Shown: positions 9,431 through 59,341 of the stretch, one piece after another
How positions within the stretch are numbered: position 1 is the first letter of the stretch
Layout of the letters: each line of letters starts with the position of its first letter
NCBI GenBank assembly: GCA_900540535.1
Contig: UQGM01000001.1
Span: 30,148-94,147 of the forward strand
Direction: 5' to 3'
DNA from: an uncultured Oscillospiraceae bacterium
GTDB lineage: Bacteria > Bacillota > Clostridia > Oscillospirales > Acutalibacteraceae
Length of the DNA stretch: 64,000 nt
Made by a program: the position numbers and the translations under genes
The notes under the pieces: generated by a model
The model's input: the letters and a program-made list of their open reading frames with translations, nothing else
What the model was told of the DNA's origin: nothing
The model's database searches: none

Positions 9431-9812
9431 CTATGACCCACAATATCCTAAAAAGCAGCTTTTTCGGAACTGTTTTGAAGCTAATAGAGAATTAAGTAAA
9501 AAATTTGTCAGGTTCCTAAAACTGTCTGACAAGTCCCTCCATAATACACATTCAAAAATGAATTGGTGATTTCATTTCTAAAAGAAAACTGCATTATGTT
9601 CTAAAATTATCTTGAACAGACAAACGCAGCTTTTAATAACAGGCGAGTCATAAAAACATATTAAGTTAAACTTGAATTTCTATTCAAACATATTTCATTT
9701 TTATAATAGCACAGGTTTTTTGTGCGTCAATACGCTGACGGCATACTTAAAACAATTAACATGATTTTTATATAAAATAAAAAGAAAGCAAGGTATAATA
9801 CTTTGCTTTCTT

Positions 9813-13479: not shown

Positions 13480-13655
13480 ATCGCAGGCGGTTACATTTTC
13501 TCATTTCTGCTACTTGGTGTGTGAATTGAAAGCGGACATGTCCGTCGCAGGCACTTATAGTTGTTTTTCGCTGACAATCCGTGTGCGTTTTGCCTGCAAG
13601 CTCAGCTTGCTGCGACTTGGGTGCAGGCTCAGCCTGCGCTTGATTTTAGTGAAAA
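13480..13655 (-). repeat. Copy R1 of the modular palindromic-unit repeat family (short, reverse orientation; A/B modules only)
   Basis: Contains GCGGACATGTCCGC, GCAAGCTCAGCTTGC and GCAGGCTCAGCCTGC palindromes. CGCAGGCACTTATAGTTGTTTTT is the reverse complement of the B module. TTGGTGTGTGAATTG is the reverse complement of the tail. Confidence 0.8.
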
Positions 13656-16764: not shown

Positions 16765-17865
16765 ATGAAGATAGTTTGCAGCACTGAAACTCTTTCTCAG
16801 GCATGTCAGAACGTTCAAAGAGCTGTTTCTACAAAAACCTCAATTCCCGCAATTGAGGGTATCTTGTTAAAAGCCGAAAACGGCAGACTATATCTTACAG
16901 GATATGACCTTGAAGTAGGTATCAATACATCAATTGAAGCAAAAGTGGAGCAGGATGGCAGCATTATCCTCAATGCCCGTTATCTCTGCGATATTATCCG
17001 CCGTCTTCCCGATGAGGAAGTAGAGATCGAAGCCGATGCAAGACAGCTTTGCTATATCAGAAGCGGCGAAACAAATTATTCTCTTAACGGAATTTCTGCT
17101 GAGGAGTATCCCGAGCTTCCCAGCGTTACAGGCGGAGCTCCTGTTATTATCGATCAGGGAATACTCAAAAACATGATAAGACAGACTATTTTCGCCGTTG
17201 CCGATAATAACAGCAATGTTGTATATACGGGTATAAAGTTTGAGATAGAAAAAAATCAGATAAAACTTATTGCTGTTGACGGAGTTCGTCTTGCAATAAG
17301 AACAGAAGAAATTGACTATGACGGAGAAGAGCTTTCATTTATCGTTCCGGGAAAGACACTTTCCGAGGTTATGAAGCTTATTGACGAAGAAGAAGCAGAT
17401 GTTTCTCTCGGAGTAGGAAAAAGACATATTGTATTTGAAGTTAACGGATACAGCATTGTTTCAAGACTTCTCGAAGGAGAATTCCTTGATTACAAGAGCG
17501 CTGTTCCCGCATCTTTTGCAACAACAGTAAGAGTAAGCACAAAAACTCTTATGAGCAGTATCGACAGAACTTCTCTGCTGATTACTGACAGACTCAAGAG
17601 CCCTGTAAGATGTATTTTTGATGATAACACCATTAAAATTTCCAGCATCACTTCTCTTGGTACTGCAAATGATAAAATTTTCGCTCAGATTGACGGCGAA
17701 AGAATAGAAATCGGCTTTAACAACAGATTCCTTATTGAAGCTCTCAGAGTATGCGATACAGACGAAGTACTCATAAAGCTCAACAGCCCTGTTTCACCGA
17801 TTATTATTCTTCCTCCAGAGGGAGAAAGTTTCCTGTTCCTGGTGCTTCCGGTAAGACTGAAGTGA
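16765..17865 (+). CDS. dnaN: DNA polymerase III beta sliding clamp
   Basis: 366 aa with conserved three-domain beta-clamp sequence. Position immediately after dnaA. Confidence 0.95.
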   Translation: MKIVCSTETLSQACQNVQRAVSTKTSIPAIEGILLKAENGRLYLTGYDLEVGINTSIEAKVEQDGSIILNARYLCDIIRRLPDEEVEIEADARQLCYIRSGETNYSLNGISAEEYPELPSVTGGAPVIIDQGILKNMIRQTIFAVADNNSNVVYTGIKFEIEKNQIKLIAVDGVRLAIRTEEIDYDGEELSFIVPGKTLSEVMKLIDEEEADVSLGVGKRHIVFEVNGYSIVSRLLEGEFLDYKSAVPASFATTVRVSTKTLMSSIDRTSLLITDRLKSPVRCIFDDNTIKISSITSLGTANDKIFAQIDGERIEIGFNNRFLIEALRVCDTDEVLIKLNSPVSPIIILPPEGESFLFLVLPVRLK

Positions 17866-18400
17866 GCAAACTGAGTTTGCATCCCAGACGCACACCAAGT
17901 AGCAGTAATGGGCAACTATAAATTCCTGCGGGCAAGCTGAGCTTGCAGGCAAAACGTACACGGACTTACAGAAACGAACAACTATAAGTGCCTGCGGCGT
18001 AGTTTCTGAAAAATCAAAGCAGAAACATTAAAGAACAAAGAACTCCACAAACCAATTTTCTGACAGTCGCCCACGTCGGCAAGGGAAAAGACATTGAAAA
18101 CAGAAAAACGTTTACACTTTGACGGTGATAAAATAAAACTTTCAAGTTGCCGTCGGAGGGCATTTAGCTCTAAACTTACCTTGCGCTGATTAGTGCTTAC
18201 TGTTTTGGCAAGCAAAATGCGTTTTTGCTCGACTTTGTCGCTATGGAAAAAAGTATGTGCCCTGCTGCGGCACGAGCAGCAAAACTTACTCATTTATCAG
18301 AGTATGGGTAAGAAGCAGCAAGTTAATTACACACTGACTTACAGAAATGAGAAAATACAGCTTTCTGCGTCAAAGTCTCATAATTTATTAAATTAAAAGT
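17866..18400 (+). repeat. Copy R2 of the modular repeat family (forward; A/B array plus a shortened body with one hybrid stem-loop)
   Basis: GCAAACTGAGTTTGC and GCAAGCTGAGCTTGC palindromes. CTTACAGAAACGAACAACTATAAGTGCCTGCG B module. CACGTCGGCAAGG...TTGCCGTCGG hybrid stem-loop. End motif TTATCAGAGTATGGGTAAGAAGCAGCAAGTTAAT. Confidence 0.85.
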
Positions 18401-29204: not shown

Positions 29205-29400
29205 ACAACTTCACACGGGGGCGTATGCCCCGGCGGATTACGGTTTTGCCGAAAGGCAGATTAAAAGGGAATGCGGTCAGATTCCGCAGCAGCCCCCGCT
29301 ACTGTAAAAATGACGAAGACTTTTAGAGCTTAGGCTCTGCCACTGGGAAACCGGGAAGGTTAAGTCTGAGGATGATTTTGAGCCAGGAGACCTGCCGTAG
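29205..29400 (+). ncRNA. Cobalamin (AdoCbl/B12) riboswitch aptamer
   Basis: AAAAGGGAATGCGGTCAGATTCCGCAGCAGCCCCCGCTACTGTAAAA matches the cobalamin core consensus. GCCACTGGGAAACCGGGAAGG plus AGCCAGGAGACCTGCC is the B12 box. Confidence 0.85.
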
Positions 29401-29489
29401 TGCGTTGATTGCTGATTTCGGTGGGAGATCGAGGCGATTCAAGGAAAAAAGCGGATTTTGTATTTTCATTTCCGGTTTCTTTCTCATGC

Positions 29490-32284: not shown

Positions 32285-33175
32285 TATGTACTTTTGTCCA
32301 TAGCGACAAAAGTACCAAAAACGCATTTAATAAGCCTTGACGGTTTTCGCTCTGAGTTTATCTGCCTTTAGAAGGTGTCTCGGTAAATCGCCGGCAGGCA
32401 GAGCCTGCACCCAAGTCGCACACTAAATGACAGTGAAAAACAACTAAATATTCCTGCGTTTAAAATAAAAGCTAATCGCAGGCGCACATATATTTTTCAT
32501 TGCTCTCTTTTGGTGTGCGAAATAAAGGCGGATATGTCCGCCTCGCTCTCCGAACAGCTTACAGCAATACGAAAAGCCGCAAGGCTATCGCACTGCTTAC
32601 TCTCATTTCTGCCGGGTGAGCGTGGCAGCGTGACGCTGCACCCAAGTCGCACACCAATTGACTGCTAAAAATAAATATCGTTGCCTGCGATGAAATTATA
32701 TGTAAACTAAAAAAGCAAAGAGCAGAAACCAAAGAACCACATAAAACCAACTCTCCGACATTCGCACACGTCGGCAAGGAAATAGATATGGACAGCAGAA
32801 CAGCGTTTACGCTTTGCTGGTGATAGCTTAAGCTCTCCAAACTGCCGACGTGAATTGGTGAACGCTTGCTGAGCCTAACCGACGGCAAAGGAAAGAATAT
32901 GGCAAACAGTAAAACGTTTACTGTTTGAGGGTAATAAAAAATAATCCTCCAAACTGCCGTCGGTGGGCGTGTGGGAGAAAACTTACTTTGCGCTGATTAG
33001 GGATTACTGTTTTGGCAAATAAAATGCGTTTTTGCCTACTTTTGTCGCTACGGACAAAAGTAGGTGCACCGCCGCAGCATGAGCGGCAAAACTTATTCGT
33101 TTATCAAAGTGCGGGTAAGAAGCAGCAAGTTAATCCCGCCAGGCTCAGCCTGCAATTAAAAAGAAAGGATGGGGC
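32285..33175 (+). repeat. Copy R3 of the modular repeat family (full length; mosaic with inverted fragments at the 5' end)
   Basis: GCAGCGTGACGCTGCACCCAAGTCGCACACC. Two 85-87 nt stem-loops (CACGTCGGCA...TGCCGACGTG and CCGACGGCAA...TGCCGTCGG). End TTATCAAAGTGCGGGTAAGAAGCAGCAAGTTAAT. Confidence 0.85.
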
Positions 33176-44291: not shown

Positions 44292-44324
44292 TTGTACAAT
44301 AAAAGAATTAACAAGGGTGTAGGA

Positions 44325-45045
44325 GACGATATTTAATGTTAGCTGCGATTTGGTGTGCGGCTTCTTACCCGAACTCTGATAAATGAACAAGTTTTAACGC
44401 AGGCACTTATACTTTAGTGCGCCGTATCTTGGTGTGCGAATTAAATCAGGCTTAGCCTGTGCCGCTCATGCTGCGGTGGAGCACATACTTTTGTCCATAG
44501 CGACAAAAGTAGGCAAAAGCGCATTTGCGGCGGAGTTCCGCCGCCTTGTCAAAACAGAAAGCACTAATCAGCGCAAAGTAAATTTTCTCCCATACGTCCT
44601 CCGACGGCAGCCCCAAAGGTTTTATGCTGTCACCGTCAAACAGTAAACGTTTTACTATTTTCTATATTCTTTCTCTTGCCGTCGGTTAGGCACGGTAAGC
44701 GTTTACAAATTCACGTCGGCAGTTTTAACAGTTTTAATTTATCACCGTCATACTGTAAACGTTTTACTACTTTCCATATTTTTTCCTTTGCCGACGTGGG
44801 CGGCGGACACGTCCGCTTTCATTTCGCACACAAAAATACAGCGTTAGGAAAATATAAGTGCCTGCGATGAGGGTTTATTTTAGACGCAGGAATATATAAT
44901 TGTTTATTGCAGTCAGTTAGTGTGCGAATTGCCTGCAAACTCAGCTTGCCCGCAGGCACTTATAGTTGTTTTTACCCGTCAGTTCGTGTGCGGCTTACGT
45001 GCAGGTTTAACCTGCTGCTGCTGACTTGTATTTATGTCAATATTG
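44325..45045 (-). repeat. Copy R4 of the modular repeat family (body in reverse orientation with forward A/B modules at the right end)
   Basis: Reverse complements of the end motif (GCTTCTTACCCGAACTCTGATAAATGA), of the GGCGGCGGAACTCCGCCGCC hairpin, and of the long stem-loops. Forward GCGGACACGTCCGC...AAGTGCCTGCGATG. GCAGGTTTAACCTGC. Confidence 0.85.
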
Positions 45046-48433: not shown

Positions 48434-49150
48434 ATGTATGTTTCACGTGAAACATTAATACAAGAGTGCGGCGAAATCGGAATTGAGCTGAATGAAAAGC
48501 AGCTCAGTGATTTTGAAAAATTCGCCGAAATGGTTGTGGAAACAAATAAGCATTTGAACCTTACGGCGATCACCGACCCTGAGGGAATAGCCGTAAAGCA
48601 TTTTACCGACAGCCTTACGCTCCTTACGGCAATTGATATACCGGAAGGGGCAAAGGTACTGGATGTGGGAACCGGCGGCGGATTCCCGGCAGTGCCCATT
48701 ATGATTGCAAGACGTGATATTGATATGACAATGGTGGATTCCACCGCAAAGCGTCTGAAATTTGTGGATTCGGCAGTGGAAGCCCTTTCCCTTAAGGGAG
48801 TTACCGTTCATTCCAGGGCGGAGGAGCTCGGCAAAAACAAAGCTTACCGTGAAAAGTTTGATTTTGTCACTGCAAGAGCCGTTGCAAATCTCCGTGACCT
48901 TTCGGAATATTGTCTGCCATTTGTAAAACAAGGCGGATTCTTTATAGCCATGAAAGGTCCCCTTGCTTCTGAGGAAATTAAGGACGCACAGAACGCTATC
49001 AAGATACTGGGCGGAGAAATCAAGGAGATAAAAAACATAACTCTTTCCGATGCAGGGGAAAGAAATATGGTTATGATAAAAAAGATATCGCAAACTCCGC
49101 CAAAATATCCACGCCCCTCGGCACAAATCGCAAAGCGACCCCTCGTTTAA
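48434..49150 (+). CDS. rsmG: 16S rRNA (guanine527-N7)-methyltransferase RsmG (GidB)
   Basis: SAM-binding LDVGTGGGFPAVP. Follows mnmG with a small overlap. Start at MYVSRETL assumed. Confidence 0.9.
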   Translation: MYVSRETLIQECGEIGIELNEKQLSDFEKFAEMVVETNKHLNLTAITDPEGIAVKHFTDSLTLLTAIDIPEGAKVLDVGTGGGFPAVPIMIARRDIDMTMVDSTAKRLKFVDSAVEALSLKGVTVHSRAEELGKNKAYREKFDFVTARAVANLRDLSEYCLPFVKQGGFFIAMKGPLASEEIKDAQNAIKILGGEIKEIKNITLSDAGERNMVMIKKISQTPPKYPRPSAQIAKRPLV

Positions 49151-50432: not shown

Positions 50433-50951
50433 TTATATTTCGCCTTCATATTCCATTGACCGCATACGCATACTTCCATCCAATTTTTGAAATTCACCAT
50501 ATCTCACAAAATGCAGTCCGCATTTCTTCATGACATTTCCGGATGCAAGATTCGGTTCACAATGAGATGATGCAAATTTTCGTGCTCCAAAATTTCTATG
50601 TACATAATTTATCATCGCTTTTGTAGCTTCCGTAGCATATCCCATTCCCCAGCAATCATATCGAAAATTATAGCCGAATACCCAATATCCTTTTTTGTCA
50701 TCAAAACCTATATCTCCGCTTCCAATCAATTTTCCGTCGGAAATACGCTCAAATCCAAAATTATATGTACTTTTATCCTGTTCAGCAAAGGAAAGCCATT
50801 TTTTCACTTGCTCTATATCTGTATATGTGTTATAAACCATGTATTTTGAAACTCGTTCATCGCTAACCCATTCAAATACATCATTTGCGTCGGAAATTTT
50901 TAAAGGGCGTAATAGTAGACGATCTGTTTTTATATAAATTTCATTACTCAT
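50433..50951 (-). CDS. GNAT-family N-acetyltransferase (RimJ/RimL-like)
   Basis: N-terminal LLLRPLKISDANDVFEWVSDERV. Acetyl-CoA-binding region (Q/R-x-x-G-x-G/A-like). Start likely MSNEIYI. Confidence 0.7.
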   Translation of the reverse strand: MSNEIYIKTDRLLLRPLKISDANDVFEWVSDERVSKYMVYNTYTDIEQVKKWLSFAEQDKSTYNFGFERISDGKLIGSGDIGFDDKKGYWVFGYNFRYDCWGMGYATEATKAMINYVHRNFGARKFASSHCEPNLASGNVMKKCGLHFVRYGEFQKLDGSMRMRSMEYEGEI

Positions 50952-51288
50952 AGCACTTTTTCCTTCCTTTTGCAAATTTGTATTTACTAAACTTTTAACA
51001 ATTGCATTATAACATTTAGGTATAAATTTTTCTATTGTTTCTATACTTTTAAAAATAGCAGCGATGTTCCCTTATCGATAGTCACTAAGAATGAAATTTG
51101 ACAATCCACGATAAGGGCTCTTTTATTTACAGACGAAAAGTGAGGAAAGTTTTGCTTTAGAAAATTACTGTTTCCTGCATTGATTTCCATATCTTAATGT
51201 TTTAACAATCCAATTGAACTGTTATTTTTAAATGGTTAAGTATTAAAGAATGCGCAACTGTGAGAAAAATGTGGAAAATCAGGTATAA

Positions 51289-51885
51289 TGTTTCACGTGA
51301 AACAGTGGCTTAGTCTGTGCCGCTCATGCCGTGGCGAGATCAACTTGCAGCTTCTTACCCGCACTTTAATAAATGATAAAGTTTCGCCACTCATGCCGCA
51401 GCAGGGCACATACTTTTGCCCGTAGCGAGCAAAGTCAAGCAAAAACGCATTTGCAGCGGTGTACCGCCGCTTTGCCAAAACAAAAAGCATTAATCAGCGC
51501 AATGTCAGTTTTCTCCTACACGCTCTCCGACGGCAGCTTGGAGGGATTCTTTATATCACCGTCAAAGTGTAAACGTTTTACCGCTTACCACATTCTTTCA
51601 TTTGCCGTCGGTTAGGAACAGCAAGCGTTCGCCAATTCACGTCGGCAGTTTGGAGGGGTACGTTTTATCACCTACAAAGCGTAAACGCTGTACTGCTATC
51701 CATATCTTTTCCCTTGCCGACGTGTGCGGCTGTCGGGGAGTGGGTTTTATGTTGTTCTTTGGTTTCTGCTCTTTGTTTTGTAGTTTACATATAACTTTAT
51801 CTCAGGAATTAATATTTATTTTTAGCTGTCATTTGGTGTGCGACTTGAGTACAGCGTCACGCTGCGTTTCACGTGAAACATTTCA
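51289..51885 (-). repeat. Copy R5 of the modular repeat family (reverse orientation), bounded at both ends by the 14-bp palindrome GTTTCACGTGAAAC
   Basis: Reverse complements of the end motif, of the two long stem-loops (CCGACGGCAG...CTGCCGTCGG; CACGTCGGCAG...CTGCCGACGTG) and of a GCAGCGTGACGCTG A-module. GTTTCACGTGAAAC at 51291 and 51869. Confidence 0.85.
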
Positions 51886-51960
51886 ATTTTTTTCGTTAAA
51901 TCCTTTATCTTTTACAGTGGTTGTGATATAATTTTTTAACAGATAGAGGAGTGTTATTTA

Positions 51961-53651: not shown

Positions 53652-54923
53652 ATGCTTGATATCAGAGTAATAAGAGAAAATCCTGAAAAGGTAAAGGCAG
53701 CAATGAAGAGCCGCAACAAGGATATGGATGCACAGGTTGACCGTGTTCTCCAGATAGATGCGGCACGCAGAGAGCTTATGGGAAAAGCTGATGCGCTCAA
53801 AGCTGAGCAGAATGCAGCAAGCAAGGAAATTCCGAGAATCAAAAAAGAGGGCGGCGACATTTCAGAGATCATGAGCCGCATGAATGAGATTAAGGAATCC
53901 GTTAAAAAGCTTGATGCAGAGCTTGCAGAGCTCGATGCAGCACAGAAATCACTTATGTATGAATTCCCCAACATCCCCAACGAGAGAGTACCTGTTGGTA
54001 AGGATGACAGCGAAAACGTAGAGGTTCGTCGCTGGGGTGAGCCTACAAAGTTTGATTTCGAGCCCAAAGCTCACTGGGATATCGGTGCAGATCTTGGAAT
54101 ACTTGATCCTGAAACAGCAGCAAAGGTTACAGGTGCAAGATTCCATTTCTATAAGGATTTAGGTGCAAGACTCGAAAGAGCAATCATGAACTTCTTCCTC
54201 AACACCCACACAGCCAATGGATACACAGAGGTTTTCCCGCCCTATATGGTAAACCGTGCATCCATGACAGGTACAGGTCAGCTTCCGAAGTTTGAAGAGG
54301 ATGCTTTCAAAATCACCAATGATGACTATTTCCTTATTCCCACAGCAGAAGTTCCCGTTACAAATATGCACAGAGATGAGATTCTCGACGGAACAAAGCT
54401 TCCCATTAAGTATTGCGCTTATTCCGCATGCTTCAGAGCTGAGGCAGGCAGCGCCGGCAGAGATACAAGAGGACTTATCCGTCAGCATCAGTTCAACAAA
54501 GTTGAGCTTGTAAAGTTTGCAAATCCCGAAAATTCCTATGAGGAGCTTGAAAAGCTCACAAACGATGCAGAGAGAGTGCTCCAGCTTCTCGGACTTCCTT
54601 ACAGAGTTGTAACTCTCAGCACAGGCGATCTCGGATTCAGTTCTGCAAAGACCTATGATATAGAGGTATGGATGCCCTCATACGGTAGATATGTAGAAAT
54701 TTCATCCTGCTCAAACTTTGAGGATTTCCAGGCACGCAGAGCATCAATCAGATTCAAGAACAGCCCCAAGGATAAAGCACAGCTTGTTCATACTCTTAAC
54801 GGTTCAGGTGTTGCAATCGGCAGAACAACCGCAGCTATTCTTGAAAACTATCAGAATGCTGACGGCAGTGTTACAGTTCCCGAAGTTCTCAGACCTTACA
54901 TGGGCGTTGACAAAATCGGCTGA
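53652..54923 (+). CDS. serS: Seryl-tRNA synthetase
   Basis: N-terminal coiled coil [12 protein letters not shown]. Class II motifs ([22 protein letters not shown]). Start at 53652 with AAGGGG RBS. Overlaps the parB 3' end. Confidence 0.95.
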
Positions 54924-54955
54924 TAGTCTTATTTTATCGCAGCAATTAAAAACTA

Positions 54956-54988
54956 AAAACGGCAGCTTTCACGGCTGCCGTTTATTTC
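54956..54988 (+). terminator. Rho-independent terminator after serS
   Basis: AAACGGCAGC-TTTCAC-GGCTGCCGTTT followed by ATTTC. Confidence 0.7.
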
Positions 54989-54989
54989 T

Positions 54990-55745
54990 AGCAGCAGGCT
55001 GAGCCTGCACCCAAGTCGCAGCAGCGTGACGCTGCACCCAATTCGCACACCGGCTGACAGAAACGAGAAACTATACGTGCCTGCGTGCAAACTGAGTTTG
55101 CATCCAAGTTGCACAGCAGGTTAAACCTGCACATAATTCGCACACGGACTTACAGTAATAAGAAAATATAACCGCCTGCGGCGGACACGTCCGCTTTCAA
55201 TTCGCACACCAAGCGTCACCCAAAAATAAATATTAATGCCTGCGATGAAGTTACATGTAAACTAAAAAAGCAAAGAGAAGAAACCCAAGAACCACATAAA
55301 AGCAACTCCCTGACAGTCGCCCACGTCGGCAAGGGAAAAGATATGGCAAGTAGTATAACGTTTGCACTTTGTTGATGATAAAATGTACCCCTCCAAGCTG
55401 CCGACGTGAATTGGTGAACGCTTACACTCACTAACCGACGGCAAGAGAAAAGAATTCGATAGTAAAAAAACGTTTACTGTGCGTTGGTGATAAAAACTAA
55501 TCTTCCAAACTGCCGTCGGAGGGCGTGTGGAAGAAACTTACCTTGCGCTGATTAGTGCTTACTGTTTTGGCAAGGCGGCGGGACTCCGCCGCAAATGCGT
55601 TTTTGCTTCCTTTTGCCGCTATGGGCAAAAGGAAGTGCACGCCACGGCATGAGTGGCGAAACTTTATTATTTATCAGAGTTCAGGTAAGAAGCCGTAAGT
55701 TAATTTCGCCATGGCATAAATGGCAAGACTTACTCGTCTATCAAA
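54990..55745 (+). repeat. Copy R6 of the modular repeat family (forward; best-preserved copy: five-unit A/B array, two 87-nt stem-loops, hairpin-rich 3' body, tandemly duplicated end motif)
   Basis: GCAGGCTGAGCCTGC, GCAGCGTGACGCTGC, GCAAACTGAGTTTGC, GCAGGTTAAACCTGC and GCGGACACGTCCGC, each followed by ACCCAAGTCGCA-like tails. Stem-loops 55322..55408 and 55434..55520. GCGGCGGGACTCCGCCGC and TTCCTTTTGCCGCTATGGGCAAAAGGAA hairpins. Confidence 0.9.
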
Positions 55746-55855
55746 GTAAAAATGAAGAAGCAAAATAACATATAATATCTTTATCACATTTTCTTACATC
55801 CAACATTAAAACTTTAACCTTGAAAATTACTGCCATGTACAGGCAGTGTATATAA

Positions 55856-59341
<3,486 letters not shown>

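Follow-up and report, generated by a model that had tools for sequence, protein, structure and literature searches.

What is the row of short palindromes that fills the spacer downstream of serS in an uncultured gut Oscillospiraceae bacterium, and what maintains it? The window, i.e. the whole 64-kb stretch of DNA analysed, is a replication-origin region with a G+C content of ∼40%. Pfam scans covered 36 of its ORFs (including most of those ≥150 aa), the rest being covered by Pfam annotation of syntenic loci. They identified dnaA, dnaN, an S4-domain gene, recF, gyrB, gyrA, mnmE, a noc/parB-like gene, parA, parB and serS, together with numerous glycoside hydrolase genes; mnmG and rsmG were added to this set from the annotation of syntenic loci. 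The array lies in a spacer of 957 nt, between the end of serS (54923) and the start of a gene for a GH2 beta-galactosidase (55880). Its five units are arranged head to tail at 54994–55244, 3′ of the serS terminator, and are joined to a longer element, here called module X. The features of this spacer are the following:

54957–54983 (+): serS terminator hairpin, given for context; the array begins 10 nt further on
54994–55020 (+): short unit 1, with palindrome GCAGGCTGAGCCTGC (54994–55008), then the truncated tail ACCCAAGTCGC
55021–55085 (+): full unit 2, with palindrome GCAGCGTGACGCTGC (55021–55035), tail ACCCAATTCGCACAC, spacer and Box2 (..TATACGTGCCTGCG); nhmmer E 6e-16
55087–55115 (+): short unit 3, with palindrome GCAAACTGAGTTTGC (55087–55101) and tail ATCCAAGTTGCACA
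55116–55180 (+): full unit 4, with palindrome GCAGGTTAAACCTGC (55116–55130), tail ACATAATTCGCACAC, spacer and the Box2 variant TATAACCGCCTGCG; nhmmer E 3e-15
55181–55244 (+): full unit 5, with the 14-nt palindrome GCGGACACGTCCGC (55181–55194), tail TTTCAATTCGCACAC, spacer and the Box2 variant ATTAATGCCTGCG; nhmmer E 1e-12
55245–55720 (+): module X, adjoining the array; conserved, non-coding and ∼470 nt in length

The five palindromes reported by a first-pass annotation are all found where it had placed them. The tails and two ‘second blocks’ that it quoted are also present, but the first tail is truncated (ACCCAAGTCGC), with the next palindrome directly after it, and the exact tail string ACCCAAGTCGCACAC exists at 32409 and 32640 and is absent from the 54994–55244 array. 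The second block had been assigned to alternate units; the blocks are as quoted, but the fifth unit carries one too (55211–55244). Thus, the true unit is ∼66 nt long with three boxes, and the short units are truncations. Units 1 and 3 are such truncations, of 27–29 nt, ending inside the tail and devoid of the spacer block. Palindromes start 27, 66, 29 and 65 nt apart, and Tandem Repeats Finder detects the first two short units only, indicating that the array is far from a simple tandem repeat.

These units probably belong to a small non-coding interspersed hairpin repeat that has expanded intergenically in one species group of uncultured gut Oscillospiraceae, spread by insertion and reshuffled by recombination. 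The evidence comes from the anatomy of the unit, from its behaviour among strains and in mobile elements, and from its position relative to genes.

Anatomy of the unit and constraint on its hairpin

The full unit of ∼66 nt and its three conserved boxes were defined by a repeat search and by a profile built from the window copies. The palindrome is 15 nt long (GCRRNNTRANNYYGC, consensus GCRRNN-TRA-NNYYGC) and corresponds to a GC-rich hairpin with a stem of 6–7 bp and a T-R-A centre. It is followed by the tail, an oriented 3′ flank made of four class-specific nucleotides and then CAA-N2-CGCACAC. A variable, A-rich spacer of ∼22 nt leads to the second box, TATAAGTGCCTGCG, and the next palindrome usually abuts the end of the preceding unit directly. 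The conserved flank is on the 3′ side; the sequence 5′ of the palindrome is variable (G/A, CAG, CGG). With the nhmmer profile, 20 units are found in the 64-kb window (E-values down to 1e-17), in six intergenic regions and never in genes. The string CAANTYGCAC occurs 7 times versus 1.2 expected; together with the E-values and the covariation of the palindromes, this puts the array well outside chance. Besides the serS–GH2 spacer, the regions are:

13482–13637 (−): array of three units upstream of a gene for a LacI-type regulator
17866–17996 (+): two full units, the first beginning at the stop codon of dnaN, then a short X (17995–18336) and a partial unit (18330–18371)
32394–32689 (mixed): a tail-to-tail pair and one unit, 32394–32458 (+), 32477–32538 (−) and 32625–32689 (+), then X at 32688–33143
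44321–45015 (− overall): unit mosaic between a GH3 gene and mnmE, with units at 44321–44459 (−), 44804–44866 (+) and 44885–45015 (−) around X at 44432–44885 (−)
51330–51866 (−): X (51330–51801) and one unit (51802–51865), bounded exactly by parS sites at 51289–51304 and 51865–51880

The presence of units elsewhere in the window had been recognized at first pass, from an incomplete list that missed those at 51802–51865, 18330–18371 and 44321–44459. Also overlooked were the invariant second box TATAAGTGCCTGCG, the lineage-restricted, genome-wide spread, the mosaic with X and the insertions of single units.

For the study of the hairpin, 324 units were collected in 595 kb, from the window, ten conspecific strains and four related species. 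Perfect 7+1+7 palindromes account for 188 of the 249 that can be placed in register. The ten commonest classes are all perfect, among them GCAGGCTGAGCCTGC, GCAGCGTGACGCTGC, GCAGGTTAAACCTGC, GCAAACTGAGTTTGC, GCAAGCTGAGCTTGC and GCGGATTGAATCCGC, and palindromes with mismatches are mainly singletons. A mutual-information scan of 179 distinct units ranks the stem pairs at the top, with 96–98% Watson–Crick pairing and three pair types at two stem positions; it finds no complementary covarying pairs in the unit outside the stem. The named 7-bp helix was also examined in a gap-free alignment of 50 distinct units, with shuffled and slid-partner controls. Paired cells reach 93.4%, versus 79.4% in shuffled and 20–38% in slid alignments, and double-change cells number 59 versus 16.6 expected. 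Compensatory changes affect four of the seven stem pairs, and covariation in the palindrome is stronger than in any slid control or any of 500 shuffles. The predicted fold, for RNA and DNA alike, is a 6-bp stem with a 3-nt loop. Outside the stem, the boxes CGCACAC and CCTGCG are near-invariant (0.0–0.3 bit) and the spacer between them is variable (1–1.9 bit), which points to a constraint on the motifs and not merely to recent copying. Collectively, constraint acts on the structure of the stem and on the sequence of the two boxes.

This agrees with the initial impression of a palindrome that varies while staying symmetric next to a constant flank, and the rule extends to four other species and to mobile elements. 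Dyad symmetry in homologous units of related genomes, whose loss had been named as evidence against the hairpin family, is kept. Two further structural relations were considered. A second helix between CGCACAC in Box1 and GTGccTGCG in Box2 appears in minimum-free-energy folds, but was rejected because both boxes are invariant and show no covariation. A guide/target-type relation within the unit was likewise discarded, there being no covarying pairs beyond the stem.

Mosaic arrays, strain turnover and insertion

Module X adjoins every array of the window except that at 13482–13637, and has the orientation of the adjoining units in the serS–GH2 array and in three others. It contains an internal duplication of ∼110 nt, closed by helices of 9–10 bp (CACGTCGGCA/TGCCGACGTG), and two hairpins with clear compensatory changes; its folding is equal on both strands (−58.6 and −58.2 kcal/mol). 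A role of X as a cis-regulatory leader was rejected on its mixed orientation to the downstream gene (8/13). Coding capacity was also rejected: stop-free stretches exist in antisense, but copies differ by single-nucleotide indels and gene calls are inconsistent among strains.

As X is found whole or as sub-modules between units, an integron-like cassette array comes to mind, with the hairpins as attC-type sites and the modules of 35–470 nt as non-coding cassettes. The hairpins are indeed conserved in structure, variable in sequence and interspersed among strain-shuffled modules. However, the stem is only 15 nt, its consensus holds neither R″/L″–L′/R′ boxes nor a GTTRRRY core, no integrase gene is present in the window, and the arrays, instead of following one attI, are found in both orientations at hundreds of scattered loci. 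An integron origin is therefore extremely improbable.

The number and order of units turn over at the level of strains. Identical ParA occurs on many gut-metagenome contigs, of which ten were fetched, giving eleven strains with the window; serS in the ten contigs is 96.5–99.2% identical to that of the window. The first-pass annotation had suggested looking for differences in unit number between strains, and these are extensive at the serS–GH2 locus: the spacer ranges from 359 to 957 nt, holds 2–5 units with or without X, and has eight different architectures in the eleven strains. The L008 array corresponds to the L003/L004 type minus one 27-nt unit between repeated tails, and palindromes are swapped between strains in otherwise identical contexts. 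Such a loss and such swaps are exactly as expected from recombination between repeated tails. Amplification is seen in L035, where a 99-nt composite (one unit and 33 nt) is present in four tandem copies. Gene content near the arrays is variable too, with a GNAT gene that only some strains carry. Of the pairs formed by neighbouring units, 92 are head to tail, most of them abutting exactly; 11 are tail to tail, nine of which have a spacer of 14, 15 or 18 nt, and 2 are head to head. At a larger evolutionary distance, arrays occupy the same spacers in species only 83% identical; this indicates that they are old, and leaves room for a host function.

Units are also found in mobile DNA, where the state before insertion can be read. 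A conjugative-element operon present in many gut metagenomes encodes VirB6-like, PrgI-like, sortase, VirB4-like and Cna-B adhesin proteins. In one allele, two translationally coupled genes are separated by an 80-nt unit; these genes overlap in the other allele, which is empty at this site, and the unit supplies the stop codon of the upstream gene. Its flanks share only TGG, a 3-nt repeat and the sole candidate target duplication. That other allele instead has a unit in frame inside virB4, where 84 nt replace 30 nt; the protein is thereby lengthened by 18 residues, in a loop missing from the 89%-identical allele and from the solved homologue (PDB 4ag5). Prophage intergenic regions contain units as well. 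Since matching empty sites exist, units do insert, and the single units in the conjugative element, in virB4 and in prophages indicate that each entry into new DNA involves one unit. These insertions show a family that is still mobile or was so until recently. A classical MITE mobilized by a DDE transposase was discarded as an identity, because the ends of the unit are not inverted repeats and the one filled/empty pair with clean flanks shows a repeat of at most 3 nt (TGG).

From these comparisons, new copies probably arise by insertion of single units of ∼66–80 nt. Where two or more units adjoin, their invariant boxes may then serve as sites of replication slippage or unequal crossing-over, by which units are added, deleted or swapped; this would yield the truncated 27-nt units, the tandem amplification and the strain-specific arrays.

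The distribution of the family is narrow. In an exact-pattern scan with one genome per species, 42 of 45 loci belong to four MAG species labelled ‘uncultured Oscillospiraceae bacterium’, which are 83–97% identical to the window in syntenic genes and in which the matches are scattered over many contigs; the other three loci are single chance matches. A single group of five closely related uncultured Oscillospiraceae species is rich in the family. When metagenomes are searched with a looser pattern, further contigs of this lineage appear, as do isolated units in other human-gut contigs, one with a G+C content of 54%. Plasmid and phage databases contain no match to the unit. Among IMG/VR viral contigs, two of three patterns have no match and the third has four single matches; one contig, L115, has the same length and match position as L071, where the match is weak and at chance level (nhmmer E 0.08). 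In the window, Rfam 15 at gathering score reports only a cobalamin riboswitch and one tRNA, with no match to the unit or X, and a permissive Rfam scan of 54900–55900 gives chance-level matches only. A literature search found no description of such repeats in Oscillospiraceae or Clostridiales.

This distribution, together with the unit anatomy, also bears on a degenerate or novel CRISPR-like array. The resemblance is superficial and limited to regularly spaced short palindromes in non-coding DNA. The logic is reversed: neighbouring palindromes differ, so that the palindrome is the variable part, and the interval is itself a conserved repeat, with a period of 27–66 nt and no unique spacers. Few arrays per genome are expected of a CRISPR, but units are dispersed over at least six loci in 64 kb and over dozens of contigs in each of the four genomes. 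No large ORF of the window has a cas domain, and the sole CRISPR-repeat match in Rfam lies elsewhere, at chance level (E 3.3). The first-pass statement that the array is not a CRISPR is upheld, and the contrary is next to inconceivable.

Position relative to genes and the search for an enzyme

The orientation of arrays was counted for the 74 that have genes on both sides:

Co-directional flanking genes, array sense: 28 arrays
Co-directional flanking genes, array antisense: 25 arrays
Convergent flanking genes: 16 arrays
Divergent flanking genes: 5 arrays

Arrays have no strand preference relative to genes and avoid promoter spacers. When the upstream gene is co-directional, about one-third of the arrays start within 10 nt of its stop codon, and in several the TGA at the centre of the palindrome is that stop codon. 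Elsewhere, arrays directly adjoin a terminator or a parS site, and units also occur inside operons (dnaN–recF, the B12 cluster and the conjugation operon). Around the origin, no replication-strand bias of arrays is evident (6 versus 4). A promoter reading was rejected, the TGACAG and TATAAG sequences being only ∼12 nt apart and consensus scans unremarkable.

Several of these features would suit cis elements that serve the host, either as RNA hairpins that protect 3′ ends or punctuate operons, or as DNA sites for nucleoid or topology proteins, with arrays kept by selection. Arrays lie at gene 3′ ends, directly behind a stop codon or a terminator, seldom occupy the promoter spacers of divergent genes and enter operons; the same spacers are filled in species 83% identical, and two boxes are near-invariant. 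Roles of this kind (transcript protection, nucleoid and topology sites) are reported for REP/BIME of E. coli. Yet the unit is asymmetric and is found about equally in sense and antisense, and stem mismatches are roughly equal for G:T (14) and A:C (9), which argues against a strand-specific RNA motif. The hairpin has no U-tract after it and is not an intrinsic terminator, unit number and order vary freely among strains at one locus, and no Rfam family matches. A host-serving role as the reason for the arrays is therefore improbable. The orientation and mismatch data fit an element acting at the DNA level, or a hairpin of importance on whichever strand it forms.

The insertion-spread hairpin repeat favoured here leaves a place for an enzyme. 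The hairpin would act in single-stranded nucleic acid, most likely ssDNA, and a putative trans-acting enzyme may read the stem shape and CGCACAC, as HUH/Y1 enzymes read REP or the ends of IS200/IS605. Perfect palindromes may also be restored in the course of replication, if hairpins form and the template is switched within one strand, so that the perfection of the stem classes could come either from recognition by an enzyme or from templated quasi-palindrome correction.

A stricter version, and a sub-case of the repeat described above, would have the units as cognate sites of an ssDNA enzyme that is dedicated to these hairpins and whose gene lies elsewhere in the genomes. It would belong to the RAYT, IS200/IS605-type HUH Y1 or Ssn-type GIY-YIG families, bind the stem and cut in or near the CGCACAC tail. 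The geometry is suggestive, a hairpin with an oriented conserved flank 9–15 nt away being found in REP/RAYT, IS608 ends, relaxase nic sites and NTS/Ssn (PMC2817692, PMC11893778). In addition, the stem varies in sequence with its pairing kept, and insertion proceeds without inverted termini. Against it, the search for such a gene was negative. Pfam scans of the window reveal no cas, integrase, transposase, recombinase, HUH or GIY-YIG genes. In ∼1 Mb of related unit-rich sequence, no HUH or GIY-YIG motif was found, nor by motif any small single-domain GIY-YIG gene flanked by units. Neither a RAYT (Y1 HUH) gene flanked by units nor an autonomous tnpA/tnpB copy sharing unit ends was found in the window or in this ∼1 Mb. 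All-against-all clustering of ORFs reveals no multi-copy ORF in the 45 genome loci, and the unit-flanked ORFs examined include no partner enzyme.

The sites argue in the same direction. Upstream of 20 array starts, no conserved target sequence or tetranucleotide such as GTAG or TTAC is present, REP clusters alternate in orientation whereas unit arrays run head to tail, and the published SRM motif of Ssn does not match. The Neisseria Ssn enzyme needs the sequence of the stem and not its shape alone; here, at least 10 stem classes coexist and share one tail. A dedicated enzyme of these families is thus possible but unlikely. The earlier suggestion of transposase subterminal hairpins is not borne out, as no transposase, HUH or GIY-YIG gene was found in the window or the ∼1 Mb and no conserved target tetranucleotide lies 5′ of the arrays. 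Two specific identities were rejected as well. An IS200/IS605-derived PATE does not suit a unit with one hairpin, at its 5′ end only, and with no conserved sequence 5′ of the 20 array starts. As to the NIME/NTS–SRM consensus, the motif HGTCWY..RNCYNB occurs a single time in the window, within recF and outside the units.

Place among bacterial interspersed repeats

The unit family is new, and its head-to-tail arrangement with three boxes is somewhat unusual. It is of the known REP/BIME-, NIME- or BOX-like kind, and by sequence or defining details it is a member of none of them. The BOX element of pneumococci is a modular non-coding repeat, boxA–boxB(n)–boxC. Like the units, it occurs in a Firmicute as a module of ∼45–66 nt, in copy numbers that vary by locus and strain, in either orientation and inside operons. 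Unlike BOX, the units have no distinct terminal A and C modules and carry a hairpin each, and the sequences are not similar. Rickettsia palindromic elements (RPE) are 100–150 nt long, mostly intragenic and not arranged in head-to-tail arrays. They share with the units the nature of a small hairpin repeat and a tolerated in-frame coding insertion (here in virB4), but a coding insertion is the exception here.

A closer parallel in architecture is given by REP/BIME with RAYT in Enterobacteria and Pseudomonas (PMC2817692). Both are short GC-rich extragenic hairpins with an orienting non-palindromic flank, and both reach very many copies (here 20 units in 64 kb, and many contigs per related genome). 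Both form mosaic clusters with other motifs, at gene 3′ ends, with several stem variants per genome. They differ in the flank, which is a 5′ GTAG in REP/BIME and a 3′ CAA-N2-CGCACAC in the units, and in cluster arrangement, alternating in the former and head to tail in the latter (92 versus 13). Only the units have another invariant box, 22 nt beyond the flank; a RAYT was looked for with them and not found, and sequence similarity is absent. In Neisseria, dRS3/NTS and RS modules (PMC11893778, PMC1797815) combine a palindrome of ∼20 nt, with fixed arms and a variable core, with modules of 50–150 nt that it punctuates. NIME arrays further resemble those of the units in their oriented flanks, strain-variable composition and variable gene content (here the GNAT gene). 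The unit/X architecture, in which palindromes punctuate shuffled modules in strain-variable arrays, is NIME-like. On the other hand, the units contain no ATTCCC-N8-GGGAAT and no SRM match, neither ssnA nor a Piv-type recombinase was found, and the host is a Gram-positive anaerobe, unlike Neisseria.

It is tempting to go one step further and to consider that the units, and perhaps X, are substrates of an undescribed hairpin-reading ssDNA enzyme system in Clostridia, or else that X is a new large multi-copy structured ncRNA. Such an outcome is quite unlikely. If true, the enzyme would read the stem shape together with CGCACAC and TATAAGTGCCTGCG and would tolerate any stem sequence, and the system would have sufficient activity to enter conjugative elements and prophages, and even a coding sequence.

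The practical consequences of the repeat are nearer at hand. Arrays break assemblies, several contigs ending in them. They overwrite the 3′ ends of genes, as when a gene comes to end at the central TGA of a palindrome, and create spurious ORF calls. Since they differ between strains that are 97–99% identical in serS, they could serve as markers for strain typing. One oriented tail common to many compensated stems makes the family usable for testing how hairpin repeats are recognized and kept perfect, with templated quasi-palindrome correction and selection by an enzyme that recognizes structure as the candidate causes to separate. The family leaves the overall view of bacterial interspersed repeats as it was; what it adds is an undescribed repeat in an uncultured gut lineage that is very prevalent and poorly known.

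Module X and its arrangement with the repeat units

Module X is a conserved, multi-copy, non-coding element of ~470 nt that accompanies the ~66-nt palindromic units in intergenic mosaics. Its copies in the window are as follows.

55245-55720, copy of X
32688-33143, copy of X
17995-18336, short form of X
51330-51801, minus strand, copy of X
44432-44885, minus strand, copy of X

X contains an internal duplication of 110 nt closed by helices of 9-10 bp, and two of its hairpins carry compensatory changes (GCCTACTTTTGTC/GACAAAAGTAGGT and GCCGC/GCGGC). No match to X was found in Rfam. Public gene predictions place ORFs of 136-237 aa antisense to X, in some strains only (L003:8662-9375, L005:8747-9331 and L009:13244-13654, all from conspecific strains). 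These ORFs have no Pfam hits and are probably spurious calls produced by the repeat. One hairpin module of X, ACTTTTGTCCATAGCGACAAAAGT, occurs as a solitary copy at 32289-32329 (minus strand), apart from any full X, and is likewise solitary around 9461-9502 in the conspecific loci L003-L009; sub-modules of X can thus stand alone.

The units themselves recur in tail-to-tail pairs, with 14-15 nt between partners, one of which is usually of the GCGGACACGTCCGC class (window 32394-32538 and 44804-44951; also L012, L018, L021, L031 and L052). Each pair forms a long inverted repeat and in this resembles REPIN doublets. At L035:2692-3110, a 99-nt composite of one unit and a 33-nt extra segment is repeated four times in tandem, showing that a unit-containing block underwent recent amplification.

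Mosaics at parS sites and a variable GNAT gene

The mosaic of X and units located 5′ of parA is exactly enclosed by the first two of the following parS sites.

51289-51304, canonical parS (TGTTTCACGTGAAACA)
51865-51880, canonical parS
48439-48454, canonical parS
50433-50975, minus strand, GNAT acetyltransferase gene adjoining the mosaic

In two conspecific strains (L001 and L008), a bigger mosaic lies between the same two sites, and unit palindromes directly adjoin parS. Immediately after the right-hand site, positions 51881-51888 read TTTCAATT, the same 8 nt with which the tail of the GCGGACACGTCCGC unit class begins (55195-55202); this match could be a coincidence or a trace of recombination history. 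The GNAT gene is carried by the window, L002, L007 and L010 and is missing from the other strains, some of which have three additional units at its position. Such varying gene content at a repeat-flanked site recalls the minimal mobile elements of Neisseria.

Insertions into mobile elements and effects on neighbouring genes

Single units are present within the transfer operon of a conjugative element. An 80-nt single-unit insertion (L057:2045-2111, minus strand, versus L058:4187-4190) separates two transfer genes that otherwise overlap, and a unit in frame within virB4 (L058:1762-1829, minus strand, versus L081) adds 18 residues in a surface loop. Both sites are empty in the opposite allele. 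Units also occupy intergenic regions of a prophage (L063:5478, 7554 and 13467; L110:3802 and 5960) encoding terminase, portal, DnaB, antirepressor and a group II intron reverse transcriptase.

The first unit of an array often holds the end of the upstream ORF, with TGA of the palindrome centre as stop codon. ORFs terminate at or read into it, for example, at window 17863-17880, L055:1990-2020, L011:5550-5580 and L057:2101-2113. Some upstream C-termini are encoded by partial palindromes, indicating that gene 3′ ends were overwritten by repeats. A cobalamin riboswitch (29224-29413, 127 bits) lies 5′ of the gene for a 935-aa protein, and a unit/X mosaic (32394-33143) separates this gene from a DUF4430-CbiQ-ABC-ECF transporter cluster. 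Hence ~800 nt of repeat interrupts an apparent single B12-related gene cluster.
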